Positions 8,716-33,002 of a DNA stretch of 64,000 nucleotides are shown here, piece by piece. The DNA is from an uncultured Bdellovibrionales bacterium (lineage in GTDB: Bacteria > Bdellovibrionota > Bdellovibrionia > Bdellovibrionales > SG-bin7). Position numbers and translations under genes: made by a program. Each line of letters starts with the position of its first letter. The stretch's first letter is position 1. The stretch lies in assembly GCA_964498095.1 (NCBI GenBank), contig CAZCFY010000007.1, forward strand, positions 114,257 to 178,256, in the 5' to 3' direction. Under the pieces are notes generated by a model. The model was not told where the DNA came from, did no database searches, and saw only the letters and a list, made by a program, of their open reading frames with translations.

Positions 8716-8829
8716 TTGAACAAAAACTTCTTTGAATCCTGGACAGGCGAGAACCCGACCAAGATCTGGTAAATTCTGGTTGTCTGTACAACCACACTAA
8801 ATCCTAGATAATAGGATAGAGGAGAAATT

Positions 8830-9288
8830 ATGGCGGAACAAAACCGGCGAAGTTGGAAAAATATCCTTGTAGATTCACGCTTTCAGCTGACCTACGTTTT
8901 ATACTTCATATCATTTGGATTGATTAGCGCGACTCTAGTCGTGGCTATCATTTCGCACTTTCAGAAAAAGTTTTTCGAACTCGTTATTAATTCCAGCGAA
9001 AAAGATATCTCACCATCGCTATTCTTAGGTTTTAGTTCGATCATGCATGAAATGGCAATTTCGCTCGCAATCTTTGTGGTTCTCTACTCTATTTTTGGCG
9101 TAATTTTAGCTATGTTCCTAAGTCATAAAATCGTGGGGCCCGCCACAGCCATTCGTAAATTTCTCGGAGACCTAAAAGCCGGAAATTATGGCGGTCAACT
9201 TAATCTACGTAAAGGTGATGAGCTAAAGGATCTGGAAAAAGATCTAAATGAGCTTAGTTTACTGCTTAAAGAAAAATTAAAGGGATAA
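8830..9288 (+). CDS. Small membrane protein with a HAMP-like linker
   Basis: Two TM segments followed by GPATAIRKFLGDLKAGNYGGQL...DELKDLEKDLNEL. Confidence 0.4.
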   Translation: MAEQNRRSWKNILVDSRFQLTYVLYFISFGLISATLVVAIISHFQKKFFELVINSSEKDISPSLFLGFSSIMHEMAISLAIFVVLYSIFGVILAMFLSHKIVGPATAIRKFLGDLKAGNYGGQLNLRKGDELKDLEKDLNELSLLLKEKLKG

Positions 9289-10857: not shown

Positions 10858-10988
10858 GATAACCCTTCCCCTTAAAATATCTTACCAAAGATAAAGAAAT
10901 TTAGAAATTTTATAAAATCGCCTTGCGCCCGTGTTTTGTTTTGAGACAGAATAGTCTCATTTTGAAACACTTTTCTCGAGGAGAATTT

Positions 10989-11627
10989 ATGAAACATTAT
11001 TTGTTAATATTTAGTGCTCTGTCGCTGCTTGCTGGTTGTTCGTCAGATCAAAAAAATACTATGGCGGGAACCGGAATTGGCGCGGCGGCAGGAGCAGCCG
11101 TTGGCGCTATCATCGGTCATCAAAGCGGAAATCGGGATAAGGGCGCTCTCATTGGCGCGGCACTTGGTGCTGGTGTCGGCGGTTATGTTGGAAACCGCAT
11201 GGATAAACAGGCCAAGGAATTAGAAAAGATCGCTGAAACGAAACGAACCGAACAAGGCCTAGTGACCAAACTAAAGAGCGATATCTTGTTTGAAACCGGA
11301 AAAACGGATTTAAAGAACCAGGCCCAAGGTAATCTTACAAAAATGGCAGAAATCATGAAAAAGTATCCTGAGAACGTCCTAACGATCCGCGGATACACTG
11401 ACAACGAGGGTTCAAGCAAAATTAACGAGTCCCTTTCTCAACAAAGAGCTGAAGCGGTAAAAAATTCGTTGGTAGTTGCAGGTCTTCCTGCCTCAACAAT
11501 TTCCACAGTTGGAATGGGCCCCGCGAATCCGGTGGCCGACAACAAGACAAAAGAAGGTCGAAAGCTAAATCGTCGGGTTGAGATCGAGATTACTGTTGAC
11601 CAATCGAAGGTTCCAAAAGAAAAATAG
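10989..11627 (+). CDS. OmpA-family lipoprotein (glycine-zipper N-terminus plus OmpA C-terminal domain)
   Basis: Start at MKHYLLIFSALSLLAGC (lipobox). Gly-zipper GAAAGAAVGAIIG. OmpA motif GYTDNEGS...NRRVEI. Confidence 0.8.
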   Translation: MKHYLLIFSALSLLAGCSSDQKNTMAGTGIGAAAGAAVGAIIGHQSGNRDKGALIGAALGAGVGGYVGNRMDKQAKELEKIAETKRTEQGLVTKLKSDILFETGKTDLKNQAQGNLTKMAEIMKKYPENVLTIRGYTDNEGSSKINESLSQQRAEAVKNSLVVAGLPASTISTVGMGPANPVADNKTKEGRKLNRRVEIEITVDQSKVPKEK

Positions 11628-11634
11628 AATCTAA

Positions 11635-12984
11635 ATGACCGTTGCTCCTCCACCCGAAGAAGTTGCTCCTGCGGAAGCTGAACAGCCACCTTTAACCTTA
11701 TTGGAAAGGTGGCCAAACCTATCTCATGAAGAACGCATAACGGAATTTAAGGCCCTACCCCGCACCGATGCAGAAGAATTATTTTTAAATCTTCACGCTC
11801 CTGAACAAAACGAAATTTATTCGGAATTAACGCCGGCTGAACGCCGCTCTTGGATCCGCATGTTGGCGCCCGACGATGCGGCCGACTTATTACAGTTATT
11901 TCCAGTCGATGACCGCCCTGCCGCGCTCGCCCTACTTGATGACTTTACCCGCCGCGAGGTTGTGGCCCTTCTTGCGTATGCCGAGGACGAAGCGGGGGGC
12001 TTAATGAGCTCGCGCTATATTCGGTTGCGCCCCGATATGTCGGTGGACGAAGCAATTCATTACCTGCGTGCGCAGATGAAAGCCCCGAATATCGAAGTGG
12101 TGTATTATGCTTACGTATTAGACCCTTCACAAAAAATATTGGGTATTGTTTCATTTCGGCAGCTAATGTTAGCTCCGCCAATGAAGGCCGTTCGCGACAT
12201 AATGACTACGGACATTATCGCCATTCCCGAGGACATGGACCAAGAGGAAGTTTCTAAAAAGTTCGCGCAGCACGATCTCATGGCAATTCCAGTTACAGAT
12301 GCCGACATGAAAATGAAAGGTATCATTACCTTTGACGACGTTGTCGATGTTGTTAAAGAAGAAGCTACCGAGGACATTCAAAAACTTGGTGCCGTTCAAG
12401 TTATGGACTCGCCATATTTGCGCACGCCATTTTTTAAGCTTATCCAAAAGCGTGCCGGCTGGCTTATTGTTCTCTTTATTGGCGAAATGTTTACCGCAAC
12501 AGCGATTGGATACTATGAAAGCGAAATTGCCAACGCCGTCGTACTGGCACTTTTTATCCCACTTATTATCAGTAGTGGTGGTAATTCTGGATCCCAGGCT
12601 TCGACTCTTGTTATCCGCTCGTTGGCATTGGGAGAATTGCGGGTCGAAGACTGGAAGAGAATTCTAGTTCGCGAAATATACTCTGGCCTGACTTTAGGAC
12701 TCATGCTTGGACTTATCTGCGCCGCCCGTATTTATCTTTTGCCCGGCCGTGACCAAAATTACGGTGAGCACTACATGCAATTGGGTGTCGCCGTAAGTTT
12801 AAGCGTGGTTTTCGTAGTGCTCTGGGGCGCCACCGTCGGCTCTATGTTACCACTCGGACTGCGCAAATTGAATTTCGACCCCGCAACAGCTTCGGCGCCG
12901 CTGGTTGCGACTCTCGTCGACGTTACTGGGCTTATCATTTATTTTTCGATCGCCAGATTTGTCATGGGCGGCACTCTTTTTTAA
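11635..12984 (+). CDS. mgtE: Magnesium transporter MgtE
   Basis: MgtE N-domain, tandem CBS region and a C-terminal TM domain (IPLIISSGGNSGSQAS, ATLVDVTGL). Confidence 0.9.
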   Translation: MTVAPPPEEVAPAEAEQPPLTLLERWPNLSHEERITEFKALPRTDAEELFLNLHAPEQNEIYSELTPAERRSWIRMLAPDDAADLLQLFPVDDRPAALALLDDFTRREVVALLAYAEDEAGGLMSSRYIRLRPDMSVDEAIHYLRAQMKAPNIEVVYYAYVLDPSQKILGIVSFRQLMLAPPMKAVRDIMTTDIIAIPEDMDQEEVSKKFAQHDLMAIPVTDADMKMKGIITFDDVVDVVKEEATEDIQKLGAVQVMDSPYLRTPFFKLIQKRAGWLIVLFIGEMFTATAIGYYESEIANAVVLALFIPLIISSGGNSGSQASTLVIRSLALGELRVEDWKRILVREIYSGLTLGLMLGLICAARIYLLPGRDQNYGEHYMQLGVAVSLSVVFVVLWGATVGSMLPLGLRKLNFDPATASAPLVATLVDVTGLIIYFSIARFVMGGTLF

Positions 12985-14192
12985 AAGGTATATCCCACTT
13001 CGAGTAAGAATACGGACAAAAATAAATTAAGTTCGCCGTTAAATGTTGTCGTTTGGGCGGCATCTTTATAAGTGAACCCGTGATTTTCCATGGCCGCCGT
13101 ATAGCGGCCCCCCCACGACAGGGAATCAGAGAGTCTTTTATTGATTCCAAAATTTAATTCCAAACCAAGCTTTGGCAAAAGGGAAAAACTATTAAGCTCA
13201 GGGGAGTCATAAGAGACGGGATAAATATAACTTACCATTATGTCATAGAGCCAGCCCTGCGGGTCGCCAAATCTTGAGCCAAAACCAAACGCAACTCCTA
13301 ACATACTATTTTCCAATAAGCTCACCTGGTTAGTTTGATTGATGGACAGAAAAGGAATTTTATGACTTTGTACCCCAGCACGGACACGTGAACCAAGTTT
13401 AGAACTTTTATCTCCCACTCGCCAAAACAAATCCGCACTCAAAATTTGCCAGTTGGCCTTGCCTTTTACTAACGTAAACGGCGGCTCAGCTTGCGAAATT
13501 GCCCCTGGATGAGACTGAAAACTAACGTCCCCCGCCAAATTCTTTCCTTCGTACCCAAGACCCGCGGCCATTGAGGGAAATTGTATGTTTTGAAAGGAAA
13601 GTTCGTTTGTTCCTTCTTGTTTTTGAGTTACTTTTTGATAGTTACCCCCAACACTTAAACGCAAAGTAACGGCGCTAGGTGACGCCGAAGACTTGGTACT
13701 TCGGTCTTTGTCGCGCTCTCGCTCGCCGCGTTCTCGGTCGCGATCACGCTCCCGTTCGTCAGCTTTCGCGACCACGGGCGCAGGGGGTTTTAGAGTTGGC
13801 TTAGGCGACCGCTTTTTGGTTTTTACGTTGAGCTTAGCCGCCGTATCACTAATATCAAAAAGGACCAAAATTGTCTGCGACTCGTCGCCCTTTACAAAAA
13901 CCGGAACCTGTAAGAGACCCTTAGGTAATTTAGTTTTTAAATCAAAAACTCCTCTTTCATCAGCTACAGCCGCCGCGCTTTCCGGACTTAATTTTTTTCC
14001 CTTTTGTGGTCCGCGGATAACTATAACTTTGCTAAGATCAATGCTTATTCTTGCGCCGGGATCCGTTTCCCCCGAAATTAAAATCCGGGCCCGACCCTGA
14101 GCATCCGTACCCTCAAAGACGGGGTCGTACCATTCTATGCCAGCGGCATGAGAAATAGCGGAAATCAGGCTGAGTAATACGAACATGAACAT
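12981..14192 (-). CDS. Secreted/outer-membrane protein: N-terminal Ig/carboxypeptidase-regulatory-like module, RE/RD-rich linker, C-terminal beta-barrel-like region
   Basis: Signal peptide. Linker sequence ERERDRDRERGERERDKDR. The C-terminus has alternating hydrophobic residues and ends in F. Confidence 0.4.
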   Translation of the reverse strand: MFMFVLLSLISAISHAAGIEWYDPVFEGTDAQGRARILISGETDPGARISIDLSKVIVIRGPQKGKKLSPESAAAVADERGVFDLKTKLPKGLLQVPVFVKGDESQTILVLFDISDTAAKLNVKTKKRSPKPTLKPPAPVVAKADERERDRDRERGERERDKDRSTKSSASPSAVTLRLSVGGNYQKVTQKQEGTNELSFQNIQFPSMAAGLGYEGKNLAGDVSFQSHPGAISQAEPPFTLVKGKANWQILSADLFWRVGDKSSKLGSRVRAGVQSHKIPFLSINQTNQVSLLENSMLGVAFGFGSRFGDPQGWLYDIMVSYIYPVSYDSPELNSFSLLPKLGLELNFGINKRLSDSLSWGGRYTAAMENHGFTYKDAAQTTTFNGELNLFLSVFLLEVGYTF

Positions 14193-14330
14193 CCACTTTT
14201 AATCGGCTAAAACTGAAACGTTCTTAAAACTCCCGCGCTCTATTGTTGTTCTCGACTAGACCATAGTCCAACTTCACACCCCGGTACCTCAGATAAGTAC
14301 CGAAATTTCCGATAGAAAAGATGTAAAAGT

Positions 14331-17090
14331 ATGTCCAAAAATCCGAGCCTCAAACCCGGCTCCAAGCTGGGACCTTATGAAATTTTGGAACTCATCGGTA
14401 AAGGTGGGATGGGCGAAGTCTATCAAGCGTACGAAGAATCCCTTGATAGAAAAGTTGCCATAAAAATCATTCCCAAAGAGCTCGCCGATAAAGACCCGGA
14501 AATTGTAAAGCGTTTTGATGCCGAAGGGAAAGTTCTCGCACAGATGAGTCACCCAAACGTCGTGGTGGTGCACAGCCTCGGCCAATACGACGGGATCCAT
14601 TTTCTCACAATGGAGTTCGTTGACGGCCCCTCGCTAAAAGAAAGAATTAAAGAAAGAGTCTTTGATTTAAGCGAAGCTATTCCGCTCTTTCTGCAAATGC
14701 TACAGGGAACGGACGCTTTGCACCGCATGGGAATTATTCACCGCGATTTAAAACCCGCCAATGTTATTTACAAAAAAGACGGCACCATAAAAATCGTGGA
14801 CTTGGGTATTGCTAAAAATACCGAGGATACAAATCCTGAGCTTACAAAAGTCGGCGAAGTGGTTGGCTCGCCGATGTATATGTCACCCGAAGTCGCCTGT
14901 GGCGATCCCGCGACAAAACAATCCGATATCTGGGGACTTGGACTAATTTTTTACGAAATGCTTGTTGGAAAAAATCCCTTCAAGGGAAATTCCCAAGCCA
15001 CCATCTTAAAAAAAATCACGACCACGGATTTAGATTTTCCAAAAGAATATTACGTTAAATATCCCATCGACGTAATTAAGGCCATAAAAAAAATGTGTTC
15101 GCGAAACGCTCCCACTCGTTACGCCTCGATCGCCGAAGCTTATCGAGATTTTGAAGTCATCGCCGAACGCTTTAACCGCAAAGACGTCGGCGACAAAACA
15201 TCATTTGGAATTACTTCTGGTGGTCTTAGTAATACTTCTTCGAAAACAATGCCCATTTATCAACCGCCGCGCAGCCAACCCGTTAATCCCATGCAAACGG
15301 GGTTTTCTAAAACTCGCACAATCCAATCGCGGTCGCAAAAAAACTACAGCGAAGACAACGATGAATCACAATTAAAAATTTATTCCCTACTCTACCTGGC
15401 AGCGGCAGCCATAGGCGTGGTCGTATTCCTTAAATATAAAGACCGCATAGGTGGCGATGTCCCCGAAGTTAAGCCCCCGACTGCTGCCGAAGAATCCAGT
15501 GCTTCTAAGCGGCAGCCTCTTTCCATAACGGTACGATCACCACAAGAAGGAAAAGTACTTTGGGTTGCAAAGAACAACCTTTTCTCCGTGGAATACCAAG
15601 TTTCTGGAACGCTCGGAAATTTTAAAATTCAAATTGCGACCGACTCGATGTTTTCAAACGTAGTAATAGACAAATATTCTCCGCCACGCCCCTTCCAGAC
15701 TTCTGACCTGGAACCCGAGCGCACTTATTTTTTACGCTTTGTTAATCAGGCGGGCGGCGCCACAAGTTACAGTGATACAATTTCATTTTCCATCTCTGCA
15801 AAGGCACCACCGGTTTTGACCTTGCCGACCGAAGACGCTAAATTCGCGATTTCTAATCCACAACTGAATGAGGCCAGCGTAAATTTTGAGTGGAAGCGCA
15901 AAATTTCCATTGACCGTTACCGCTTACAAGTTGCGAAGGACATGGCATTTACCCGGATAATCTTAGATAAGTCCGTTGCCGGCAATCTACTGCCTTCGAC
16001 ACCAATTCCCGCCGGTAATTATTATTGGCGCGTCAGAGCTATTGGCGATAGCCCCATCTCCGAGATGTGGAGCCGCACGCAAGTTTTTACAGTGACAAAG
16101 GCCACCAACCAACCGCAAGTTCAAGTAACCCCGACCTATACGCCGCCACAGCCAAGACCTGCGGAAAAGGTTCCCCTTAAAGCGCCGCAAATAGAAAAAG
16201 CAAAAATTACGACTATGTTAGTTAGCCGCGGTAACACCCGAACACCATCGAGTTACTCGGCCCCCGCCGCTCCAATAATTTCTTGGAACAAAGTGCGTGG
16301 CGCTTCGAACTATTCTGTGCAAATCGCCTCGGATTCAAATTTTGCAAATCTTGTCCTCGACACTTCATCACTTAAAAACTCCTATAAATGGAACGAAGTG
16401 GCTCCGGGGAATTATTTCTTCCGAGTTTACGCGCGAAACAACGAAGGCACCGTCAGCAGCAGCAGCATTACCGGACAAATCGAGGCCTTATTTACCGCTC
16501 CTGATATCGATGGCACTTTCAAAATACTCGAAAAGGGTGAACGTTTCCAGGCTAAGATACGCTGGCGAAAAAATCCTATGGCCCGAGGCTACGCCGTTAA
16601 GCTCAGTGATAATCTGGCGTTCACGAATAATGTAAAAACATTTAAATCTGACGAAGAAACCCTGGATCTTGATTTAGATTCTAATCGGCGCCAATATATT
16701 AAGGTAGCCGTACTTAACGAAAATGGCGAACCGATGAGTCTTTATTCGAAGGCTTCCGTTCTAGTCTTTGACAAAATTCCTCAATTGGATAGTCCCCGAA
16801 TTAACGTTCCTCCGGATGGAACTTCACTTGCCGCCACACCAAGTGCTACCTCTCCCGTTGTGTTTGAGTGGCAAACCACCGGCAAAGCCTCCGCTTATCA
16901 AATTCAATTTGCGCGCGATCCAGATTTTTCTGATGTATTATTTTCTACCCGCGTAAAAGAAAACTTATTAGTTTTTGATAAACGCCTGCCTTCCGGCCGT
17001 ATTTATTGGCGGCTACGCGCCGAAAAAGAAAAAGCCTCATCTCCGTGGACTGGCACCCGAACATTAGAAATTCCCGGGAGAGGTGATTAA
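14331..17090 (+). CDS. Membrane Ser/Thr protein kinase with five extracytoplasmic Ig/FN3-like repeats
   Basis: Kinase motifs GKGGMGEVY, VAIK, HRDLKPAN, DLGIA and SPE. One TM segment (IYSLLYLAAAAIGVVVFL). Five repeats carry Y-x-[VL]-Q-[IV]-A-x-D-x-x-F. Confidence 0.85.
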   Translation: MSKNPSLKPGSKLGPYEILELIGKGGMGEVYQAYEESLDRKVAIKIIPKELADKDPEIVKRFDAEGKVLAQMSHPNVVVVHSLGQYDGIHFLTMEFVDGPSLKERIKERVFDLSEAIPLFLQMLQGTDALHRMGIIHRDLKPANVIYKKDGTIKIVDLGIAKNTEDTNPELTKVGEVVGSPMYMSPEVACGDPATKQSDIWGLGLIFYEMLVGKNPFKGNSQATILKKITTTDLDFPKEYYVKYPIDVIKAIKKMCSRNAPTRYASIAEAYRDFEVIAERFNRKDVGDKTSFGITSGGLSNTSSKTMPIYQPPRSQPVNPMQTGFSKTRTIQSRSQKNYSEDNDESQLKIYSLLYLAAAAIGVVVFLKYKDRIGGDVPEVKPPTAAEESSASKRQPLSITVRSPQEGKVLWVAKNNLFSVEYQVSGTLGNFKIQIATDSMFSNVVIDKYSPPRPFQTSDLEPERTYFLRFVNQAGGATSYSDTISFSISAKAPPVLTLPTEDAKFAISNPQLNEASVNFEWKRKISIDRYRLQVAKDMAFTRIILDKSVAGNLLPSTPIPAGNYYWRVRAIGDSPISEMWSRTQVFTVTKATNQPQVQVTPTYTPPQPRPAEKVPLKAPQIEKAKITTMLVSRGNTRTPSSYSAPAAPIISWNKVRGASNYSVQIASDSNFANLVLDTSSLKNSYKWNEVAPGNYFFRVYARNNEGTVSSSSITGQIEALFTAPDIDGTFKILEKGERFQAKIRWRKNPMARGYAVKLSDNLAFTNNVKTFKSDEETLDLDLDSNRRQYIKVAVLNENGEPMSLYSKASVLVFDKIPQLDSPRINVPPDGTSLAATPSATSPVVFEWQTTGKASAYQIQFARDPDFSDVLFSTRVKENLLVFDKRLPSGRIYWRLRAEKEKASSPWTGTRTLEIPGRGD

Positions 17091-22946: not shown

Positions 22947-24608
22947 CTAAAGCACGGAGAGGTGGCCGAGTGGTTGAAGGCGCATGCCTGGAACGCATGT
23001 ATGCTCGCAAGGGCATCGGGGGTTCGAATCCCTTCCTCTCCGCCAATTTAGATCTTGCTTCATTTCACTCAAAGTCCGCAGTGGTTTTACTATTTCATAC
23101 CGCACACTTAGACCATCCAAAGTTGGGTTGTAGAGTAGGTCATCCAACAGCAAACGTCGTTCTTCAGGGCTTTGCAATTTCCACAGTGATTCTGCGTTTG
23201 TGGCGAGTTGTAGAATGGTTTTCGCTGTTTCGAGTGCAGCACCGTTTATGTCTAGCTGGGCACGTTCCATCAGATTTGTGAACTGTGCGCGTTCCTGTCT
23301 CACACGCTTGAAGTTTCGCTTGTATGAATCATCATCAAGAATTCCTTGCCGAAAATGTTCATAAATCTGGTCTTCTTCATCTTCCAGCGACTTCAGTGCC
23401 AACTTGTAGTTTTCAATATCGCGCTTGATAGCATTCTGCGCCTTCTTTTCATTTTCATTCAATGCTTCAGCAACCAGTTCGCTGAATTCTTTTGTAATGC
23501 TGATTTGTTGAATTGCAGGTTCAAATTGTTCCATCAATTCTTCTTCCTTTATTCGCATTCCCTTCAGGCTGGAATGGACACCTTTGCCATTGGTGCAGTG
23601 ATAGTATTTGAATACCTTTCGTTCGCCAGTGGCCTTGATGTTCTTCTTGGTGGGGTTGTAAACGACGTGACATCCACATTCAACGTTCGCACACTTCATC
23701 CAGCCGCCACTGAACAGACCATCGGTTTTTTTTGAATATGGGTTTCTGAACCCAAAAGTTTCTTGGACTGTCCAAAACAGTTCGGCGGGGATGAGTCTTT
23801 CGTGTTTTCCTTGGTATTCAGTGCCTTGCCAGTCAAAGCGACAATCATAAAATTTATTTTTCAAGCGTCGATCAATTGTTCCAACATGATAGCTTTTTAT
23901 TTCAGAAGGCTGAATAAAGCCTTCGTCGATGACCTGTCGTCTGACTTCTCGAAGGGAAATCGGATTGCCATTGTGATCTTTCTTTGCCCTAAGTTCAAAT
24001 TCCCGCCGCACCTGTGCAACTACTTTTGGGTTGGGATCAAAAACCACAACTGTGCCACGTCGCTTTTCAAACCCCTTTGAATTTCTGTGTTTCTGATGTG
24101 CATATCCCAATGGAAGATGTGTGCCAGGATGCCAACCTTCTTCGGCCTTAGCCCTGGTCCCATTTTTCACCTTGGTTCCAAGTTCACGGCTGTAGTGTTT
24201 GTTCATTGCTGCATTGATATCACGATTGAAAAACTCTGAATCAGGGCTGTTCTTATGCAAGACTTTGTTGTCCAAAGCATAGTGTAGAATTCTTTTGCCA
24301 AGACGAACTAGATTTTCATTGTCTTCATTGTCTGTCAGGTTTCGCGCTTCCCGATCAGACCGATGATACACATGGTGTTTGATCCCTTGTTTGTCAGCCC
24401 ATTCAACAGCCGCCTTGTATTGCTTTCGCAAACTCGAATCTTTGGCGGACTCAACCAAATAGAAAATCTTGACCAACTGCAAGCCTTTTGATGAACAGTA
24501 TTGCTTCACATCGCGTTCTTGAGTTGAACTCGAAGTGTTGCCTTCCTGTCCAATACTACTGACACGAAGAATTGCGATTGCTTTGTTGTTGCTGGCCGAA
24601 ATTTCCAT
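22947..24608 (-). CDS. Large serine recombinase (integrase); the ORF tail reads antisense through the tRNA
   Basis: N-terminal [10 protein letters not shown] (nucleophile Ser) and SDREARN. Recombinase domain, then a zinc-ribbon CANVECGCH...YYHCTNG and a coiled-coil. AAGGA RBS before the ATG at 24608. The last 32 aa are encoded by tRNA-antisense sequence. Confidence 0.85.
22956..23045 (+). tRNA. tRNA-Ser (anticodon GGA), class II with a long variable arm and encoded CCA
   Basis: Acceptor GGAGAGG/CCTCTCC. Anticodon stem CATGC/GCATG with loop CTGGAAC (GGA at 22990-22992). T-loop TTCGAAT. Total length 90 nt. Confidence 0.9.
23027..23051. repeat. Left direct repeat (att-like) formed by the tRNA-Ser 3' end
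   Basis: AATCCCTTCCTCTCCGCCA (19 nt) is identical to 31644-31662. The match extends to 25 nt with one mismatch (A/C) before TTTAG. Confidence 0.8.
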
Positions 24609-24657
24609 TTTGATCCTTCAGTTTATTAAATTTTCCTTAGAAACTCCATTGTTATCG

Positions 24658-24725
24658 GGTTGTAGAGTGTCTCGCTGTCCCCAATTCCCACGCATTGGTT
24701 TCCTGGTTGTAAAGTGTCTCGGTCC
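24658..24725. promoter_or_regulatory. Two ~20-bp direct repeats immediately upstream of the integrase start
   Basis: GGTTGTAGAGTGTCTCG (24658-) and GGTTGTAAAGTGTCTCG (24705-), 47 bp apart, sit in the 125-bp gap between the zinc-ribbon gene and the integrase. Confidence 0.35.
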
Positions 24726-24733
24726 ACGGCACT

Positions 24734-25090
24734 TCACCAATCAATTTGACCGTTTGCCCTTGCCTTGTCTCTCCACTTGGCAAGCCTTTCAAAAAACTTG
24801 ATTGTCTTCTGAACTTCCCATTTTTCATAGCTTGGGTGCTGAAGAACTTTTTGGACAATAGCTGTCAGGTCATGGCTGGTGATTGAACTTTGGGGTGATG
24901 CTTGTTCAAGCATCGTCTTGCCTGTTCCACCATTCCCCCGCCGTTGTCGTTCTCGCTGCGCCTTGCAGGGCTTGCAGCATGGACCACGACGAACAATGGC
25001 TTCAGCCCTGGCACTGACAATCGGAAAGTCCGATAACACCTTCGATTGGCCGCACACCTTGCATGGTTTTGTATTGTTTTGTTCATCCAA
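24734..25090 (-). CDS. Small four-Cys zinc-ribbon protein (island-encoded), function unknown
   Basis: CKVCG...(24 aa)...CCKPCK followed by a basic stretch. 118 aa. Confidence 0.45.
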   Translation of the reverse strand: MDEQNNTKPCKVCGQSKVLSDFPIVSARAEAIVRRGPCCKPCKAQRERQRRGNGGTGKTMLEQASPQSSITSHDLTAIVQKVLQHPSYEKWEVQKTIKFFERLAKWRDKARANGQIDW

Positions 25091-25193
25091 ACTTCATGTG
25101 ACATCCTTTCCGTCAAAATTGCTTTGATCTTTCGATCCCTGCGCCTGACACCGTTTGTTTATGGCTGAAAGCCATCCGTTTTCCGCAAAACCT

Positions 25194-25628
25194 TTATTTT
25201 CTTAGCTGTGCAAAAATTTTTCTTCGCTGTATTCCGTACTTCACTTTTTCAGAATGTGTTCTCACATCAATGAATTTGGTCTTGGTATTTCGTGCCCAAG
25301 ACAACCATTCACTTCCGCGCTGTGGTTCAACCCAATGGATTTCAAACCCACGTCGCTTGGCTGACTCCACAAATCTTTCAAGAATAATGAATCTTTTGGC
25401 AATTCTGTCTGGACCTGAAACGATGATGTGTCTGACATCACGATACCTGGCTACACCAAAGACTTTTGCACCACGAATAGCTTCGTCAGCCGCTGGATCA
25501 AGGAACATTTTTTCTTTGATTTTCAGCCCTTGTTCTTTGGCATAGGCTGAACAAACGAGAAATTGATTTTTCAGAAGTACTGGATCAATTGAACTAGCTA
25601 CAATCAGTGCATGGTGATTCTTCTTCAT
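25194..25628 (-). CDS. Resolvase catalytic-domain-like protein without a DNA-binding domain (degenerate serine-recombinase paralogue)
   Basis: By eye it aligns to the island resolvase: ALIVASSID vs IAIYIRCSTTEQ, and IIVSGPDRIAKRF..ERFVESAKRRGFEIHWV vs LVVWKLDRLFRSL..LHELGDLGIEFVAL. The Arg preceding the Ser is absent. Confidence 0.5.
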   Translation of the reverse strand: MKKNHHALIVASSIDPVLLKNQFLVCSAYAKEQGLKIKEKMFLDPAADEAIRGAKVFGVARYRDVRHIIVSGPDRIAKRFIILERFVESAKRRGFEIHWVEPQRGSEWLSWARNTKTKFIDVRTHSEKVKYGIQRRKIFAQLRK

Positions 25629-25904
25629 AGAAGAGCTCCATGTCGAAATTCAATGCTGAAGAAAGAATTTGGTTCTGTCAGGGGACTGGAAGAGAATTTG
25701 AATGGTGGTGCTTCGGCTTCAGCCGATACTTCAGTTATTATTGCTTCAATTTTCTTCTCTTTCATAAGGTTACTTTCCTTTCCATTATTCTTATTATTAT
25801 ATGCGGTCGTGGATGCTGGTATATATCGGCTGTCCATCCCGATAGCGATATCGTTAAAAAATGTCGATATGTACCGTTTGGATTAGTCTGTATATATCGA
25901 CACA

Positions 25905-26519
25905 TCATTGTAATAATCCCTGTTCGGAAAGATCATCTTTGCCTTGAGTGGCACTAGCTTTAGCATCAAGAAATCCAACTCGAAGACTTCCGTCCATCAA
26001 ATGATTTTCAACTCCGTCGAATTGCCAGCCAGTATTCAGGTCACGATATTTCCAGGCTTGTTTGTATTTCATTTTCTTTATCTTTCCTGTGCCATTGTTT
26101 TTCAGAATGTAACTTGTCCTAAGTAACCCCAAATCATTGAGACGTTTTAGATAACGACCAATGCAGTCTTTTGACACACCAAAAAAATTCGCAAGTGCTG
26201 CGATCTTATAAGTGCATGGATTCCGTTCGGTGGAACCCTCTTTGTCCCAGCAATGGGAAGCAATCCAAATGAAAAGCAAAATAACTTTTGCTGGCAAACG
26301 ACTTAGAAGGACCAAATTGATGTGTCGATCAGTATCGACATGTTTGTACTGACACCAACGATGTTGTTGTTCTTTTTTTCGTTCTGGAACGCCAACAGCT
26401 TGATATGTTTGTCTAGACGTTTGTTTTTTTACCGGTTTAGATTTTTTGCTGTTCATGGTGATCCGTGCTTCCGTTTGCCGTTGATTGAAGAAATGGCGAC
26501 TCAAGTCCATCGCGTCCAA
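25905..26519 (-). CDS. Winged-helix/HTH DNA-binding protein (candidate replication or regulatory protein of the element)
   Basis: KIAALANFFGVSKDCIGRYLKRLNDLGLLR is an HTH-like segment. The N-terminus is basic. Confidence 0.5.
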   Translation of the reverse strand: MDAMDLSRHFFNQRQTEARITMNSKKSKPVKKQTSRQTYQAVGVPERKKEQQHRWCQYKHVDTDRHINLVLLSRLPAKVILLFIWIASHCWDKEGSTERNPCTYKIAALANFFGVSKDCIGRYLKRLNDLGLLRTSYILKNNGTGKIKKMKYKQAWKYRDLNTGWQFDGVENHLMDGSLRVGFLDAKASATQGKDDLSEQGLLQ

Positions 26520-26712
26520 GAATTTTCAAAATCCTTGCGCGAACATTTGGCCAAGATGGTTCATGTCCATAAGCCGTGTGAATGATGTCTAGAATTTGTT
26601 TTCGTGCAATTTTGAGTTTGGTGTGTAGTAACTCAAAATCAGTATGCTGATCCGTTGCCATGTGCCGACTCGCTATCTCAATAGGCTTTTGCCCATTGGT
26701 CTTCAGTTCCAA
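26437..26712 (-). CDS. Hypothetical small protein (island)
   Basis: 91-aa ORF co-directional with the downstream wHTH gene. No recognisable motif. Confidence 0.3.
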   Translation of the reverse strand: MELKTNGQKPIEIASRHMATDQHTDFELLHTKLKIARKQILDIIHTAYGHEPSWPNVRARILKILGRDGLESPFLQSTANGSTDHHEQQKI

Positions 26713-27171
26713 TAGCGATTATTCACTACTGGTTTTCCTGAAGACTGCGGCGGATAGTTGCCAGTCAGGGGACGAACACAATCAACAAACAACAAGTGAT
26801 TGGCTTTGCGCCAATCCTATCCCTTTTGTCTCAGCGGTATTGATAGCCAAACAAATCGGCCATGTCAATAAAGTTCAATAATATCAATATGTTATACGTT
26901 GTTATACAGACATAAGTGTTTGAACTTAAAGGGAATGATCGAGTTATTGCCCAGCATTAAATGGGCACTTCTGAAGGATCAGTGGTCAGATTTTTTCAGA
27001 AAAAGAAAACAAATTTTTGAAATGGACGTGACCGCAATGCGGGACATGTTTTGGCTGAAGCGGCTTAGATACACCGTGGGGTTGCCGTGCGCCTTTATTG
27101 TGGGAGTATTCAATAAATTCGATACCCACCCCCACATTTATTTAGAAATCATTCTAGGTTCCAGCGAACGT

Positions 27172-27390
27172 TCAAGGTCGCTTCCGTTTATCTTTTGGTT
27201 GCGAGAGTCGTGTGCGAACGTATTGATCCAAGGCTGTTGCGGCGATGTCACTGACCGTCCAGCCGTCACGATCCGCAATTTTATCTATTTGAGACAGCAA
27301 TGCTTCAGGAAGTCGCCAAGCAATGAGTCGCTTTGGTCCTTTTGAAAAAGTCTTAGGTGGAAGAGTTTTCATATCTACTTTATAGCACAA
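27172..27390 (-). CDS. Ribbon-helix-helix (CopG/Arc-like) DNA-binding protein
   Basis: RLIAWRLPEALLSQIDKIADRDGWTVSDIAATALDQYV has the RHH beta-alpha-alpha pattern. The start may be MKTLPP at 27372. Confidence 0.55.
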   Translation of the reverse strand: MCYKVDMKTLPPKTFSKGPKRLIAWRLPEALLSQIDKIADRDGWTVSDIAATALDQYVRTRLSQPKDKRKRP

Positions 27391-27404
27391 CCCTGATTCA
27401 AGTT

Positions 27405-27421
27405 GCTATACGTTGTATAGC
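27405..27421. promoter_or_regulatory. Palindromic operator-like site between the divergent RHH and resolvase genes
   Basis: GCTATAC-GTT-GTATAGC has perfect 7-bp arms. An extra TATAGCA half-site lies at 27381-27387. Confidence 0.4.
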
Positions 27422-27452
27422 AATAAATAACAACATGTGTTATGCTGTGTGA

Positions 27453-28055
27453 ATGAAATCGGGAAGAATAAAAAGGATTGCCATATACATCCGCTGTTCA
27501 ACAACTGAACAAGACACTTCAATGCAATTGCACGATCTTCAGGAATTCACAAAGGCAAGGGGATGGTTAGTTCATAAGGTATATGAAGACTATGCTTCGG
27601 GAACGACTGCTAATCGCAAGGCACTGAAGGAAATGCTTCAAGATGCAAAACAGCGCAAGTTCGATGTCCTAGTAGTTTGGAAGTTGGATCGGCTATTCAG
27701 AAGTCTTCGAGACATGGTGACGACGCTGCACGAACTTGGGGATCTTGGAATTGAGTTCGTGGCACTTCGGGATCAAGTCGATTTGACCACGGCTTCAGGT
27801 CGCCTGATGACACACATGCTTTCAGCCTTTGCAGAATTTGAGGCATCATTGATTCGTGGTCGAGTGGTTGCTGGCTTAGAATCAGCACGAAGGCGCGGCC
27901 AGCGTTTGGGAAGACCAAGGCTGCGAGACGATGACAAGATTCGGTCCTTGCGCCACCAAGGACTGTCAGAACGCCAAATTGCAATCCGACTTGGGATTTC
28001 TAGGGGTGCTGTTCAGCGGTCGCTGCGAGTGGATTCAAAACCCATTCAAGGCTGA
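27453..28055 (+). CDS. Small serine recombinase (resolvase/invertase, Hin/Tn3-resolvase family)
   Basis: IAIYIRCSTTEQ, VVWKLDRLFRSL and a C-terminal HTH (GLSERQIAIRLGISRGAVQR). Confidence 0.9.
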   Translation: MKSGRIKRIAIYIRCSTTEQDTSMQLHDLQEFTKARGWLVHKVYEDYASGTTANRKALKEMLQDAKQRKFDVLVVWKLDRLFRSLRDMVTTLHELGDLGIEFVALRDQVDLTTASGRLMTHMLSAFAEFEASLIRGRVVAGLESARRRGQRLGRPRLRDDDKIRSLRHQGLSERQIAIRLGISRGAVQRSLRVDSKPIQG

Positions 28056-28216
28056 TCTTCCAAGTGACCGAAATTCCAAGGTCTGGATCACAGTATTTTG
28101 CTGGATTCAAAACTGAAGTTTTCGATCCATCGTTCCGCACAAATGTATAACAGGCTGTAACATACTCTGAAATAGTCGGCTCCAATCACCACGATCATTT
28201 CAAAAACGATTCACCC

Positions 28217-28574
28217 GAAACATTGCAACGTCAGCATGTTATGTTTGGCTGACAATCGTGTTTCATGTATTCCAAAAAAAAATGATTTTGGATCACCCCT
28301 AAACATGCTTTTATGTTTGGTCCAATTTAATGGCGAAAAGTGGTCGTATCAATAGGGCTTGGGGTGCCCTGTTTTGCTGTTCTTCCTTGGGGAAAAGCAT
28401 GTTTCGTTATGTTTTGAACATGAACGATCAAACATGCGAAACATGTCAAAGCGTATCCCCACATGGCACCTACTTATACCCCCATTCAAACATAAAAATC
28501 CATGTTTGGTGTAAGGGGGTTTCGGGGGGCTTTATAGGGGGACTTCGAATCAACAGAACATGTTTTATGTTTGG
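28217..28574. repeat. Iteron-like array: eight or more copies or half-copies of CATGTTT/ATGTTTGG in both orientations, in non-coding DNA
   Basis: CATGTTATGTTTGG 28235-28248. CATGCTTTTATGTTTGG 28304-28320. CATGTTTCGTTATGTTTTG 28398-28416. Inverted CATGTTTCGCATGTTTG 28429-28445. CAAACAT/CATGTTTGG 28487-28509. CATGTTTTATGTTTGG 28559-28574. Confidence 0.6.
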
Positions 28575-28622
28575 TTGGTTCTTTTTGTTTGTAGCTTGCC
28601 AAGTACTAAAATCGCAGCATGG

Positions 28623-29288
28623 TTACGCTTGAATCAGTTGGCACTCACCAGCGCCAATAACTTCTGGTGAATACCTATCGAGAGTAAAGCTGCCGTCTTT
28701 TCTGGTTGCAGAGAACAAAAGTGGCATTTCAAAGTTTCCACAAGTATTTCGAATTTCATTTGAGTTTTTATTTCTGGGCGGATGAAGCTGAAAGTTGTCG
28801 CTTTTAATTTCACCGGCAACTCGTTGCTTGTACCACTTTGCACATATTGATCGAAATACTCGGTCTTTGTCCGTTCTCACACACCAGATTCGACATCTCT
28901 TATTTCCAGTATTGGGTTCGTCATCCCACAGCACGAAATAGATATGGGGAATGTCATCGAGTGCGGATACGCTGAGATCTTTTCGCGATGTTTCCGATTT
29001 TCGGCCAGAAGGAATAACTCCATTGAAGCGAGGAGTATCAATTGCTTCCCAACAATTTGCGGCTTTTACGTCAGATCCATCTTCAAGGTCTGAGCCTTTT
29101 TTTTGAGCAAGTCCCTTTTTTCCTGTCAGTACTGAAACAAGGATTTGAGACCATGCTCTCGAATCACTTGGAATGGGTTGGCCGTATTTGTTAGCTAGAG
29201 GATGTACTTCATAAAATGCTTTGTGATGGGTGTTCAGAAGTCGGATAGCTTCGGATATGTTTTCTGGTTGTGATCCTCTAGGTGGCAT
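28623..29288 (-). CDS. Putative type II restriction endonuclease (PD-(D/E)xK, PvuII-like core)
   Basis: WSQILVSVLTGKKGLAQKKGSDLEDGSDVKAAN parallels the PvuII segment [33 protein letters not shown], which I recalled from memory. The gene is divergent from the adjacent MTase. Confidence 0.55.
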   Translation of the reverse strand: MPPRGSQPENISEAIRLLNTHHKAFYEVHPLANKYGQPIPSDSRAWSQILVSVLTGKKGLAQKKGSDLEDGSDVKAANCWEAIDTPRFNGVIPSGRKSETSRKDLSVSALDDIPHIYFVLWDDEPNTGNKRCRIWCVRTDKDRVFRSICAKWYKQRVAGEIKSDNFQLHPPRNKNSNEIRNTCGNFEMPLLFSATRKDGSFTLDRYSPEVIGAGECQLIQA

Positions 29289-29416
29289 ACGACCACTGGT
29301 CGGAATTTTGCTAACATTTCTGAAGGACTTAACTCATCGCAAAAATTTCGGATGCGGATCGTGATCCATATACAAGGCTTAGATATTGGTCTAGGCTTTT
29401 CACAAACGAGGTAACC

Positions 29417-31318
29417 ATGACCAAGGTAAACAACTTAGAAAAGCATCTACTAGAATTTGCAGACTATATTTATGCACACACCGCGCTAAAGCCCATGTCT
29501 AAAACGTTATTTTTTGTTTCTAGACTTCTTCTGGTGATGAAGCACTCCTCAAAATTGAACAAAGCAATTGAAATGGGTAGATCACCGTCAATTGACGAGT
29601 TGGTTAAGGAATATAACTTAGTCAGAAAAAAGTTCTCGCTCAATGAAGACGACTACGACCTAACTCAAGTACTCACTGATATTGAGCCTCAACTTGAAAT
29701 GGTTTTGAGTTTTCTGGTGAAAATCCACCAATTATCTGCCGACTTTGACGTATTAGGGCTAGCCTTCAACTCATTGTTAAGAGGGAAGTTTGAGGCGGGA
29801 GAAGGACTGGGCACTCATTTGACCCCAGAAGAGGTCGTTGTTCCAACTATTGAAATGGCGATAAGTGCGATGGATAAGAAGGCGCTCAAAGGGCTTCTAT
29901 CGGAAAAAAGCGAGCTAATTGCCGGAGACATTACAGGGGGAACAGGGAGATTCATGTTCCACCTAGTAAAAGCACTGGAGAAGAAGAAAAACGCCTCGCT
30001 TTCGATTATAAATAAAGTATTCCTTTATGACCAATCAAAAATTCACACTGAGTTTTGCGAAATAAATTTTCTCTTAGAGAGTGAGTTCAAGCCGAAGTGT
30101 TACTGTGTTTCTGATTCACTGACCAGCTCCGCACTTGATAAACATAAGGGCAAGTTCGCGCTGTTGCTGACTAACCCACCATTCGGAGTGAATAAGTATT
30201 CTTACAGTGAAATGGTTAAGAATCATTTTAACGAGAAGATTCTAAAGTTTTTCAATTTCAATGTCGCCGGTGCCACGATTGATCCGGCTTGGTTATTTAT
30301 TGTTAAAAACTTGGATTTATTAGCTGACGGCGGAGTGCTTGGGATTGTTTTGCCAAACGGAATCGCCCATTCAGAGGAGTTGATTCGCTTGTTTAATAGC
30401 TATGAGACATTGAACCAAGTCGAACTTTCTGTGTGTGGAGTATTTTCTTTGCCCACTGTGACCTTTGCCCTTGGCGGCACCGTCGCGAAAACCACAGTGC
30501 TTCTAATTGGCAAGAATACCGAATTCAAAAAGCTGGCAACGGCAACAGTTGAACATATCGGTTTTGAGAAAAGTGGCAATAAGCGCACCGAATCTGTGCA
30601 TGGAAATCAGCTTATGGACGTTGCAAAAGAGTTTATTGCGGGTGAAAATAGCAAATTGTTAACGTGGTCAGATAGCTGGAGAGATTTTGCAAGACTCTCC
30701 CCAGATTTAATCCAATTCAAATCTAGAAAAAATCAGAATAGTTCATTGGAAATGGAATCGCTTGAGAGCCTTGTGTCCCACAGGAGAGACTTTGGTAAAA
30801 TTCAAAAAAACTCTCAATCGAAGCATCTACACATTTCAATTCTTGATATTGATGAAACCGGACTAATTGATGTGAGATCTTGTTTGGCGCAAGCACCTGT
30901 TACACAGCCACTTGTTTGTGAGCCAGGAGATATTTTGGTATCTTGCTTGAACCCAAATATTTGGAGAGCGACGTTCATTCCAGAATTGCCTAATACAACT
31001 TGGACTTGTAGCCCTGAATTTGCTGTCCTAAAGCCTAAAAAGATCGGCCAGCTTCATTCAGCTAAGTTATTCCTTTTGATTCAACAACACGCTGTTAGAA
31101 GCCAAGTTGTTTCCTTAGGAAGAGGGACATCTTCAAGCAGACAGAGAGTGAAGAAAACAGATCTTAACCATGTCGATGTGCCTATTCTGTCCTTAGCGGA
31201 TACAACGGTTAAAAACTTTCTAAAAAGTCGAATGGATTTTTATAAAAACAGAATGACGGAACTAGAGTTTATGCGTGAATTGAGTGCGGGTTCTGCTGTG
31301 GAATTGAGTCTGAGCTAA
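29417..31318 (+). CDS. N6-adenine DNA methyltransferase (gamma class) with a C-terminal target-recognition region
   Basis: Motif I GDITGGTGRFMF precedes motif IV LLLTNPPFGV. 633 aa. Confidence 0.85.
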   Translation: MTKVNNLEKHLLEFADYIYAHTALKPMSKTLFFVSRLLLVMKHSSKLNKAIEMGRSPSIDELVKEYNLVRKKFSLNEDDYDLTQVLTDIEPQLEMVLSFLVKIHQLSADFDVLGLAFNSLLRGKFEAGEGLGTHLTPEEVVVPTIEMAISAMDKKALKGLLSEKSELIAGDITGGTGRFMFHLVKALEKKKNASLSIINKVFLYDQSKIHTEFCEINFLLESEFKPKCYCVSDSLTSSALDKHKGKFALLLTNPPFGVNKYSYSEMVKNHFNEKILKFFNFNVAGATIDPAWLFIVKNLDLLADGGVLGIVLPNGIAHSEELIRLFNSYETLNQVELSVCGVFSLPTVTFALGGTVAKTTVLLIGKNTEFKKLATATVEHIGFEKSGNKRTESVHGNQLMDVAKEFIAGENSKLLTWSDSWRDFARLSPDLIQFKSRKNQNSSLEMESLESLVSHRRDFGKIQKNSQSKHLHISILDIDETGLIDVRSCLAQAPVTQPLVCEPGDILVSCLNPNIWRATFIPELPNTTWTCSPEFAVLKPKKIGQLHSAKLFLLIQQHAVRSQVVSLGRGTSSSRQRVKKTDLNHVDVPILSLADTTVKNFLKSRMDFYKNRMTELEFMRELSAGSAVELSLS

Positions 31319-31356
31319 ACTATTTCGACCGCTTCATTCGCTTTGAACCGAGCGGC

Positions 31357-31385
31357 TGGGCACGGCTTGGGCACATGATGGGCAC
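31357..31385 (+). repeat. Three TGGGCAC direct repeats at exact 11-bp phasing
   Basis: TGGGCAC at 31357-31363, 31368-31374 and 31379-31385, about 260 bp inside the right end of the element. Confidence 0.5.
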
Positions 31386-31496
31386 GAAATCGAGTGCGGC
31401 CATGAATGTTCAGAAACAATGTGATTGCAAGGGGTTGGTTAGGCAGCATGTGATAGGCAATCATTCCGAAAGCTGTCTATTCGTGTCCGCCAAAAT

Positions 31497-31527
31497 AAAA
31501 AAGCTCACTGAAGGTGGGCTTTTTTTA
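31497..31527 (+). terminator. Rho-independent terminator downstream of the MTase
   Basis: AGCTCAC-tgaag-GTGGGCT forms a stem with one G-U pair, flanked by an A-run and a T7 run. Confidence 0.5.
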
Positions 31528-31643
31528 TTTTGTTGGCAAGGTAGCGATAAGAACTCAGACGAGGGGTTCGATCAAAATAGCACAATGCTATTTTGGCGCG
31601 TAGCCTTGAGCGGAGCGAAAGGTCGAGGGCAGGAGCCCGAGAC

Positions 31644-31668
31644 AATCCCTTCCTCTCCGCCACTTTAG
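31644..31668. repeat. Right direct repeat (att-like), a copy of the tRNA-Ser 3' end
   Basis: AATCCCTTCCTCTCCGCCAcTTTAG. The sequence upstream of it is not tRNA-like. Confidence 0.8.
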
Positions 31669-31814: not shown

Positions 31815-33002
31815 TTGTTTACGAGGAATGTATTTAAAGTAACAGCTCCATTACTAGCATTTGTTTTATTTGGCAGCCCCTCTTTAGTTTGGGGTAAAGC
31901 ACCCGAATTAGAAAAGAAACTGAAACATTATAATAGCCCTGAAAGAGTGGGCCGAAGACAATTTAATCAGTATGTTCTTGAACTCGAATCACGCACCTCA
32001 TCGCTGGCTCCGCAAGACGAAGAGCGGTTCCTAAAAGAGTCGGTCGAACGAAAAATCTATAAGTCTAAAGAGAAAGCGAAGGAGGCCCTGGAAGCGCTAA
32101 AAGGACGACTTAAAGTTAGATTAGCGAGTCTTAAAACGCAAATTGGCTTCACCACTAGCGCAAGTCCGACTCTCAAGCCATACGAAAATAGTGGTCCAAC
32201 CAGAAATACCATTGGCTTTAGCAAAGCGGCAGATCCGACCCCGATTCGCTCCTCAAGCGATGAATTATTGAAAGAGCCTCATAAGGTCGGCTTTAACGTG
32301 ACAACCGATAAGGAGAGTCAAGCTCCATCGCCGACTCTTCCGCAATATATTAATTCAATGAAAATAGAACCAAAGGCCATAGCTATTAACGTCGACCCAA
32401 CGGCTTTACAGGCGGAGCTGGCGGCAGACCCAGCGAACAAATCTAAACCTATTCACGAAATGGTAAGACGTCTTTTTAATATATTGCCTTCAGAAAACTG
32501 GCCGCGCATTTACGTACTCAGCGAAGGTCATAAGCCTACACCCCCGGAATCTTTAAAATATAGTACTATGACGATAAAAGAGCTTTCCTCCGAGGTAACC
32601 ATTGGCGAGGTTTTTAAAAAGACGATTCAATGGATTGGAAAGGCTAAGAACGTGACATTTAGAATACCTCTTGAGGGGCTGACTCCTGAAAAAATAGATA
32701 CGATTTTTAATACCGCAAAAGGTGAAAAAGGCCCCGCAGGAAGTGGTGCAAAAACGCTTGGGGGATTTTTGACTTCCCTAGTGATGGCAACGAGTGCAGA
32801 GGTGTTAGCCCAGGAAGTTGATCAAAATCACTCCGTAACAGAGGCAGGTTCGTTAGTCGAAAGAACGTTCGGAATTGCCTTTGGTGATCTTGGCAAACCT
32901 ATGGTAGATTTTGGGCAATCTGCTGGTGATCTCATTGGAGATTCCGGCAAATATATTTATCGCCAGCTTCGGCCCGCCGCAAAACCGTCAGAGGCGAAAT
33001 AA
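31815..33002 (+). CDS. Secreted hypothetical protein
   Basis: TTG start, signal peptide (APLLAFVLFGSPSLVWG), no recognisable domain. Confidence 0.4.
   Translation: MFTRNVFKVTAPLLAFVLFGSPSLVWGKAPELEKKLKHYNSPERVGRRQFNQYVLELESRTSSLAPQDEERFLKESVERKIYKSKEKAKEALEALKGRLKVRLASLKTQIGFTTSASPTLKPYENSGPTRNTIGFSKAADPTPIRSSSDELLKEPHKVGFNVTTDKESQAPSPTLPQYINSMKIEPKAIAINVDPTALQAELAADPANKSKPIHEMVRRLFNILPSENWPRIYVLSEGHKPTPPESLKYSTMTIKELSSEVTIGEVFKKTIQWIGKAKNVTFRIPLEGLTPEKIDTIFNTAKGEKGPAGSGAKTLGGFLTSLVMATSAEVLAQEVDQNHSVTEAGSLVERTFGIAFGDLGKPMVDFGQSAGDLIGDSGKYIYRQLRPAAKPSEAK

Follow-up and report, generated by a model that had tools for sequence, protein, structure and literature searches.

An 8,447-bp element, as delimited by sequence comparison and counted with one copy of its 7-bp core (23039-31485 or 23046-31492), lies at the 3' end of tRNA-Ser(GGA) in a 64,000-nt stretch of contig CAZCFY010000007.1 from an uncultured Bdellovibrionales bacterium. 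This whole stretch is referred to below as the window. Most probably, the element was integrated at the tRNA 3' end by a large serine recombinase (LSR), and its attachment site, attP, sits in the 3' end of the LSR's own gene. The evidence that carries this reading is a severed 3' end of the integrase gene at the far junction, together with the recurrence of the same junction pattern in related elements.

Junctions of the element and the two deduced forms of its integrase

The target gene, tRNA-Ser(GGA), is intact and occupies 22956-23045 on the plus strand, on the attL side (ARAGORN; Rfam RF00005, 58.7 bits). It is the sole tRNA gene of the window by both ARAGORN and Rfam, and the Rfam search over 20-35 kb returned nothing else. 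The interval beside it is a compositionally foreign integrated element. Its mean GC content is 0.4295 (flanks: 0.4535 and 0.4467), no other 8.6-kb stretch of the window is as GC-poor as the one that begins at 23401, and the tetranucleotide distance to the rest of the window peaks precisely over 22-32 kb (z 2-3.3). An earlier note on this DNA, made from the letters alone, had proposed such a GC and k-mer profile as a check, and the profile does set the interval apart. The note had also put GC at about 28-37% inside and about 47% in a flanking gene; the dip exists, but it amounts to only about 2 points.

The LSR is encoded in its integrated form by a minus-strand open reading frame (ORF) of 553 amino acids (aa; 22947-24608), which was assigned by Pfam and PHROG and has 203 homologues. 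It matches Pfam Resolvase (PF00239, E 1.6e-9, 38.5 bits at a cut-off of 23.3), and residues 5-499 are covered by the integrase family PHROG_95 (E 1.2e-39). R15 and S17 of the catalytic domain are invariant across 51 relatives. In the putative zinc-ribbon region, C306, C311 and C338, together with H345, are invariant in family alignment A5, with C313 nearly so. Precomputed annotation records the Recombinase family (PF07508) for many of the homologues and PF13408 for two only, and family searches also gave weak Ccr matches. The nearest phage integrases among 50,697 phage records are only 20-26% identical. These domain matches agree with the earlier proposal that the element entered tRNA-Ser(GGA) through a serine and not a tyrosine recombinase.

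The LSR frame has no stop ahead of the tRNA gene, and the CCA of the tRNA is read as TGG, giving Trp522, which is invariant in alignment A5. Residues 1-522 come from the element and the final ~31 residues are antisense tRNA. When the end of the gene is compared with that of a 91%-identical LSR at locus L028, DNA homology ceases right after TGGCGGA, at window position 23039. On the opposite strand this heptamer reads TCCGCCA (3 nt of acceptor stem, the discriminator and CCA). It forms the attL core at 23039-23045 and recurs at 31486-31492, where a repeat search and the start of a conserved tail block define the attR core. From this point a minus-strand block (31472-31492) starts with TGGCGGACACGAATAGACAGC and runs on to ~31368. 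If the LSR frame is continued from TGGCGGA into the minus strand at 31485, the result is the tail WRTRIDSFRNDCLSHAA followed by a stop, for a total of 538 aa. This tail fits the native-tail consensus and is close to the native tails of relatives that lack a tRNA fusion, such as P0024 (WRARVDDFITDCLAHAA), P0066 (WRPHLDAFRTELSRFAA) and P0081 (WRREVADFRTECLNYAV). The minus-strand stretch 31439-31492, recognised by rejoining and by its match to these and other native tails, corresponds to the detached 3' end of the LSR gene. The junctions of the element are therefore most probably the TCCGCCA pair, and not a 19-nt repeat of the tRNA end (discussed below) that had earlier been taken for the att site. 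Rejoining thus distinguishes two forms of the LSR, one of 538 aa when free and one of 553 aa when integrated.

The same pattern recurs across the family. At L030 and L031, LSR, TGGCGG and tail lie within one ORF, which is the contiguous form of the gene. A six-frame search for the tail motif in the window and 31 loci recovered only these two contiguous genes and orphan tails, the latter at 31492 in the window and twice each in L002 and L028; all orphans lie at distal ends of LSR elements, with 0 false positives. At the DNA level, the block starting TGGCGGACACGAATAGACAGC is also conserved where other LSR elements end distally, in two copies in L028/L029 and two in L002/L003, and the homology between these distal blocks begins precisely at TGGCGG. 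In L002, as in L028, the two ends of an element have only TGGCGG(A/G) in common.

C-terminal tails were classified in the best 120 of the 203 homologues. About two thirds of them end in antisense tRNA, either as a long tail, W..(D/E)(S/L)N, in which the T-loop is read backwards (63/120), or as a short one such as WRRE or WRRG (16/120). A conserved native tail, W-R-x-x-(L/V/I)-D-x-F-R-T-x-C-L-x-x-A-A, is present in 17-20 of the 120. In-frame entry, with the tRNA CCA read through TGG as W, was verified on DNA at L001 (Ser(GGA)), L002 (Ser(GCT)), L017 (Ala(TGC)) and L021 (Val(GAC)), and distant LSRs (24% identical) adjoin tRNA-Leu(TAG) and tmRNA genes. Because LSR relatives are also present on IMG/VR viral contigs of 16-47 kb, the integration module would serve islands and probably phages too.

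Two sets of loci illustrate the range of arrangements. Two viral contigs of the same metagenome, L024 (11459-11539) and L025 (11460-11858), encode LSRs that share the C-terminus ...NLLNCLKSHK, one adjoining tRNA-Leu(TAG) and the other tmRNA; judged by sequence, the pair would be either one enzyme with two targets or a very recent target switch. L028 (GCA_963852775.1, a 3.92-Mb contig; 8392-16326) is an element graveyard near tRNA-Ser(TGA), in which two orphan LSR tails are followed by an N-terminally truncated LSR, a tyrosine-integrase gene cluster and the tRNA. The 3' end of the truncated LSR runs into non-tRNA sequence after TGGCGGA.

In the proposed mechanism, the free circle would carry an intact LSR gene of 538 aa. 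Recombination within TGGCGG, the antisense of the tRNA end ...CCGCCA, would shift the last 16 LSR codons to 31439-31492 and fuse the LSR body to the antisense tRNA, giving the 553-aa form and leaving the tRNA intact. Excision would restore the full LSR gene. The predicted circle junction is ...GAAATGAAGCAAGATCTAAAT-TGGCGGA-CACGAATAGACAGCTTTCGG..., and the predicted repaired chromosomal site is ...CCTTCCTCTCCGCCA-AAATAAAAAAGCTCACTG.... The crossover itself probably falls inside TGGCGG, since the LSR arm has a conserved T directly 5' of TGG, and core position 7 (A or G) stays with the distal arm in each of L002, L028 and L031. Candidate non-palindromic crossover dinucleotides within this hexamer are TG or GG.

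Just past the native LSR stop, Tandem Repeats Finder (TRF) detected three GTGCCCA repeats on the minus strand with 11-bp spacing (31353-31386). A counterpart, four copies of GTTCCCG, lies past the native LSR stop of L031 (~1715-1760), whose LSR is 54% identical. Judged from these two loci, the architecture of repeats just past the LSR stop is conserved, and such direct repeats in helical phase are perhaps a binding site for a regulator or directionality factor. As a regulator of the LSR or its directionality factor, the strongest candidate would be a 118-aa zinc-ribbon protein (CxxC...CxxC; 24734-25090, minus strand) with a C-terminal WRDxARANGQIDW motif. Its homologues occupy the same position, directly upstream of the LSR, in L004 (55%) and L001 (28%), which are elements with other cargo.

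Mobility, replication and the outer repeat

Several searches bear on the mobility of the element. The empty site envisaged by the earlier note, the tRNA followed directly by CTTTAGCC, gave 0 exact matches in metagenome contigs; with so few close relatives of this genome available, that result carries no information. A collection of 15 billion proteins does not contain the rejoined 538-aa LSR, and exact-protein look-ups of flanking genes (a GcvH-like protein, LysR and a 395-aa protein) retrieved no sister assemblies on record. In a LysR scan of genome contigs, the contig of the nearest GTDB relative, SG_bin7, was found to stop precisely at the tRNA, with no empty site visible, and a GcvH scan of metagenomes returned occupied or broken sites only. 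In a related genome, whose GcvH is 93% and whose LysR is 74% identical, this tRNA is occupied by an LSR of 60% identity with other cargo genes (AlpA, DUF927); a third relative also has an LSR there, apparently frameshifted.

One alternative is that an LSR-integrated element has since become immobile and persists as a fixed defence islet with its restriction-modification (R-M) system. We consider this rather unlikely. It would account for the failure to find an excised form or an empty site, and it fits an integrated LSR whose native tail is missing and whose frame continues antisense into an expressed tRNA gene. It also fits the decay in place seen in relatives, namely the truncated LSR of L028, the apparently frameshifted LSR of L013 and an insertion sequence beside the LSR of L030. 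However, the LSR ORF in the window is full length with its catalytic residues kept, the severed piece of 18 codons is undamaged and keeps the frame when rejoined, and the two 7-bp cores are identical. The combination of an intact LSR, an intact tail and identical cores therefore points to a recent event or to a maintained function.

It is also doubtful that the element is an integrative plasmid, in which the excised circle would replicate with a winged helix-turn-helix (wHTH) protein as initiator and with motifs at 28.2-28.6 kb, including TTATGTTTGG, as iterons. The protein in question (HTH_36, 204 aa; 25905-26519, minus strand) is predicted to bind DNA on the basis of Pfam, PHROG and homologue searches. 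Its matches to PHROG 428 and 270, two wHTH families of phage replication initiators, are weak (E about 1e-4), and among its relatives one shows a weak Rep3_N match and one a weak Phage_rep_O match, both sub-threshold. A 537-bp non-coding tract holds two repeated motifs: motif searches place five of the window's seven copies of TTATGTTT(GG) and six copies of CATGTTT at 28239-28574, with a spacing of ~65-96 bp. The small resolvase described below could resolve multimers. Yet no Rep family matches the wHTH protein at threshold, and its family is tiny, with 19 relatives found among 1.84 billion representatives at E up to 1e-3; apart from two, these are small proteins of ~100-200 aa with generic HTH matches. 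Neither the element DNA nor the wHTH protein has any match among 72,556 plasmids, and partition, primase and helicase genes are absent. The motif cluster, which had been described as an iteron-like array, is a genuine local feature, but it is irregular and not tandem (TRF found no tandem repeat in 28239-28574), and it is absent from all other related loci compared. With no Rep at threshold and no plasmid match, the characterisation of the content as plasmid-like was not upheld.

The last 19 nt of the tRNA (AATCCCTTCCTCTCCGCCA) occur exactly at two places only, 23027-23045 and 31644-31662, and 0 of 100 shuffles gave two matches. The displaced fragment (31644-31668, plus strand; repeat searches) stretches to 25 nt with one mismatch, just as the earlier note had described it. 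It lies 152 bp past attR, beyond a 151-bp spacer (31493-31643). The spacer contains a bidirectional terminator-like hairpin outside the LSR element (31497-31525; a 13-bp stem with an A-tract and a T-tract), which was the only signal above background level in the promoter and terminator scans. T-arm-like debris was considered for the same spacer and rejected as not significant (48/500 shuffles). The outer fragment was most likely left as an attR scar by an island that had used this tRNA before, which would make the locus a case of tandem accretion; tandem scars are found elsewhere, in L002 and L028, each with two orphan tails. The interval first proposed, 23027-31668, takes in 151 bp and the presumably older tRNA fragment beyond the 8,447-bp element.

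That 23046-31643 is a single unit, with the 19-nt repeat as the att core used by the LSR (31643 joined to 23046, and a repaired site tRNA-CTTTAGCCACAATCGG), is highly improbable: the exact repeat exceeds chance, a tRNA gene (tDNA) with a displaced fragment is a typical signature, and in a circle joined at the repeat the LSR ORF would stop after 24 codons just ahead of the terminator hairpin, but the resulting tail, WRRGRDCLGLLPSTFRSAQGYAPK, is unlike all native tails, an intact tail block starting precisely at TGGCGG would be left unused 150 bp off, serine-recombinase elements normally have very short flanking repeats (PMC5704250), the two element ends in L002, as in L028, share just TGGCGG(A/G), and dyad symmetry is absent around the 19-nt block. 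At such sites a long tRNA repeat can mislead; the 3' end of the integrase gene, left as an orphan, marks the real boundary.

Integration by the LSR at the TCCGCCA pair, with an older island scar outside it, also has points that weigh against it. The LSR scores 19.8 bits with PF07508, just under the cut-off of 21.1, and a dyad-symmetry scan of the rebuilt attB and attP revealed weak symmetry and no convincing centre. Mobility of the element is deduced from comparison only, as no empty site, circle or excised form was found, and the 553-aa integrated LSR may be inactive. In addition, TTTAG after the outer repeat resembles the LSR-side arm, which would have to be a coincidence under the older-island reading.

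Cargo and neighbouring genes

The 11 ORFs of at least 49 aa in the interval were scanned against Pfam, PHROGs and NCBIfam, and 0 matches were obtained to tyrosine integrases, conjugation families, phage structural families (capsid, terminase, tail), primases or helicases. Matches to transposase families are confined to the serine-recombinase core and HTH of the small resolvase (PHROG families labelled 'transposase', and NCBIfam IS607 at 55 bits with a cut-off of 110). These aside, the earlier statement that the interval holds no tyrosine integrase, transposase, conjugation gene or phage structural gene stands for the 11 ORFs. The cargo would then comprise a MamI-type R-M cassette, a ribbon-helix-helix (RHH) protein and a small resolvase/invertase with three sites, the wHTH protein and two further ORFs.

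The small serine recombinase (resolvase/invertase with HTH_7, 200 aa; 27453-28055, plus strand) was assigned by Pfam (E 7.7e-44) and by a PHROG DNA invertase family (E 3.8e-57). Divergent from it lies the gene for a CopG-like RHH protein of 72 aa (27172-27390, minus strand; Pfam RHH_5, E 1.8e-5). RHH_5, HTH_36 and the CxxC...CxxC motif bear out the RHH, wHTH and zinc-ribbon proteins that had been recognised from the sequence alone. Repeat searches located a palindrome, TTGCTATACGTTGTATAGCAA, in the promoter gap between the RHH and resolvase genes (27403-27423), and related sites of ~22 bp, with the core TGTTATAC / TTGCTATACGTTGTATAGCAA, at 26884-26910 (plus strand) and 28142-28166 (minus strand). 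The outer two sites are inverted and bracket the RHH and small resolvase/invertase genes over about 1.26 kb. The three sites may serve as operators or as res sites, or they may delimit a Hin-like invertible segment.

A 144-aa protein, predicted to be alpha/beta (25194-25628, minus strand), is resolvase-like below threshold only. As a third serine recombinase it was rejected on several counts: the Pfam Resolvase match (E 0.02, 15.4 bits) falls below the cut-off of 23.3, BLASTP gave no support, hhalign with the LSR profile returned a probability of 2.7%, though in the right register, and Foldseek with a low-confidence AlphaFold2 model (pLDDT 58.7) found generic flavodoxin-like folds only. The three serine-recombinase genes counted by the earlier note are thus reduced to two that are supported, the LSR and the small resolvase. 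A 91-aa ORF that gave no family match in profile searches (26437-26712, minus strand) overlaps the 5' end of the wHTH ORF.

The Type II R-M cassette occupies 28590-31325, as defined by family matches and by its DNA match to the Logan contig L027. It consists of a MamI-family restriction endonuclease (28623-29288, minus strand; RE_MamI, E 8.9e-42) and an adjacent N6 methyltransferase with an HsdS-like target-recognition domain in its C-terminal region (29417-31318, plus strand; N6_Mtase, E 2e-12), so that the R-M pair noted earlier is confirmed. The cassette is 90.7% identical over 2,733 bp to L027 (223-2954), and no flanking repeats were seen at the borders of this 2.7-kb unit. By DNA comparison, the MamI-type pair is a discrete self-contained cassette. 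In L027 it is flanked by ASCH and GAF-cyclase genes and not by island backbone. To the right of the island, a secreted-looking protein of 395 aa (31815-33002) found only itself in a search of 5.8 billion proteins, which leaves no marker for where chromosomal homology begins on this flank.

Comparison with known systems and wider meaning

The integrases of phiC31, Bxb1, A118 and TP901-1 and the SCCmec recombinases CcrA/B/C resemble the LSR in their resolvase domain and a length of about 520-540 aa; their recombinase domain and Cys-rich zinc-ribbon region have putative counterparts in the LSR. Their att sites share a short core, as those deduced here would, and a small accessory gene lies beside int in both. 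The present LSR differs from them in its targets, which are tRNA and tmRNA 3' ends and not protein-coding genes, and in having attP within the integrase ORF, with a C-terminus that changes on integration. To our knowledge, the attP of classic serine integrases lies outside the integrase gene.

A review of integrative and mobilizable elements describes serine-recombinase elements as having very short flanking repeats and as usually disrupting protein genes (PMC5704250), and the Islander database paper of 2015 states that serine integrases were not known to use tRNA genes (PMC4383910), in line with the earlier remark that the architecture is uncommon. Islander-type tDNA islands are alike in insertion at the tRNA 3' end, an intact tRNA, an adjoining integrase, variable cargo and tandem accretion. 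They differ in that they use tyrosine recombinases and a displaced fragment of tens of nt, whereas here a serine recombinase and a 7-nt core are found. The Islander signature of an intact tDNA, a displaced fragment and an integrase between them is present, with the fragment 152 bp outside the LSR junction, and the tyrosine integrase that Islander looks for is lacking, with 0 Phage_integrase matches in the 11 ORFs.

Att sites inside a gene are documented for archaeal SSV-type tyrosine integrases (PMC8371274). The SSV1-type 'suicidal' integrases differ from the present LSR in being tyrosine recombinases, described as archaea-only, that are split well inside the gene, whereas here a bacterial serine recombinase loses just its last 16 codons. 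As in such gene-splitting systems, attP lies inside the coding sequence and the product is altered by integration, in this case from 538 to 553 aa. In mycobacteriophage BPs, attP lies in the repressor gene and integration removes an ssrA-like degron; its integrase also carries a C-terminal proteolysis signal (PMC4557955). BPs phages share with the LSR element an attP inside the 3' end of a gene and a protein C-terminus altered by integration. Those phages split their repressor gene and use a tyrosine integrase, whereas here it is the integrase gene itself that is split. Native LSR tails end in -AA (HAA, LAA, FAA, WAA) in 8 of about 23 cases, and this invites the idea of a degron by analogy with BPs. 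Tycheposons are also small tRNA-associated site-specific elements with modular cargo; 27 of 937 have a large serine recombinase, and small serine recombinases are among their genes (bioRxiv 10.1101/2020.12.28.424599). They differ in being defined by a tyrosine-recombinase clade, in that many carry polymerases, primases and helicases, which are absent here, and in host lineage, as the relatives found here are Bdellovibrionota-like.

It is conceivable, and we propose this tentatively, that the LSR is one member of a wide clade of bacterial large serine integrases, apparently undescribed so far, that have specialised on tRNA and tmRNA 3' ends, with attP in their own 3' coding end and a fixed register in which CCA is read as Trp. 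Exchange of the tail, from ...DxFRTxCLxxAA, often ssrA-like, to antisense-tRNA residues, would then act as a switch of stability or activity between the free and the integrated state, and may help to set directionality or copy control. A literature search found no paper on this LSR clade, which large serine-integrase catalogues may already contain. If such a clade exists, the assumption that tDNAs are used by tyrosine integrases only (PMC4383910), which is built into finders such as Islander, would need correcting.

With an att site inside the integrase gene, the state of integration becomes readable in the protein itself. Arrangements of this kind had already been described in archaeal tyrosine integrases and in the repressor of a mycobacteriophage, but for no serine integrase in the literature searched. 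Serine integrases are widely used in genome engineering, as their att sites are short and host factors are unnecessary. A clade that targets conserved tRNA 3' ends would, if true, offer natural landing sites in many bacteria.

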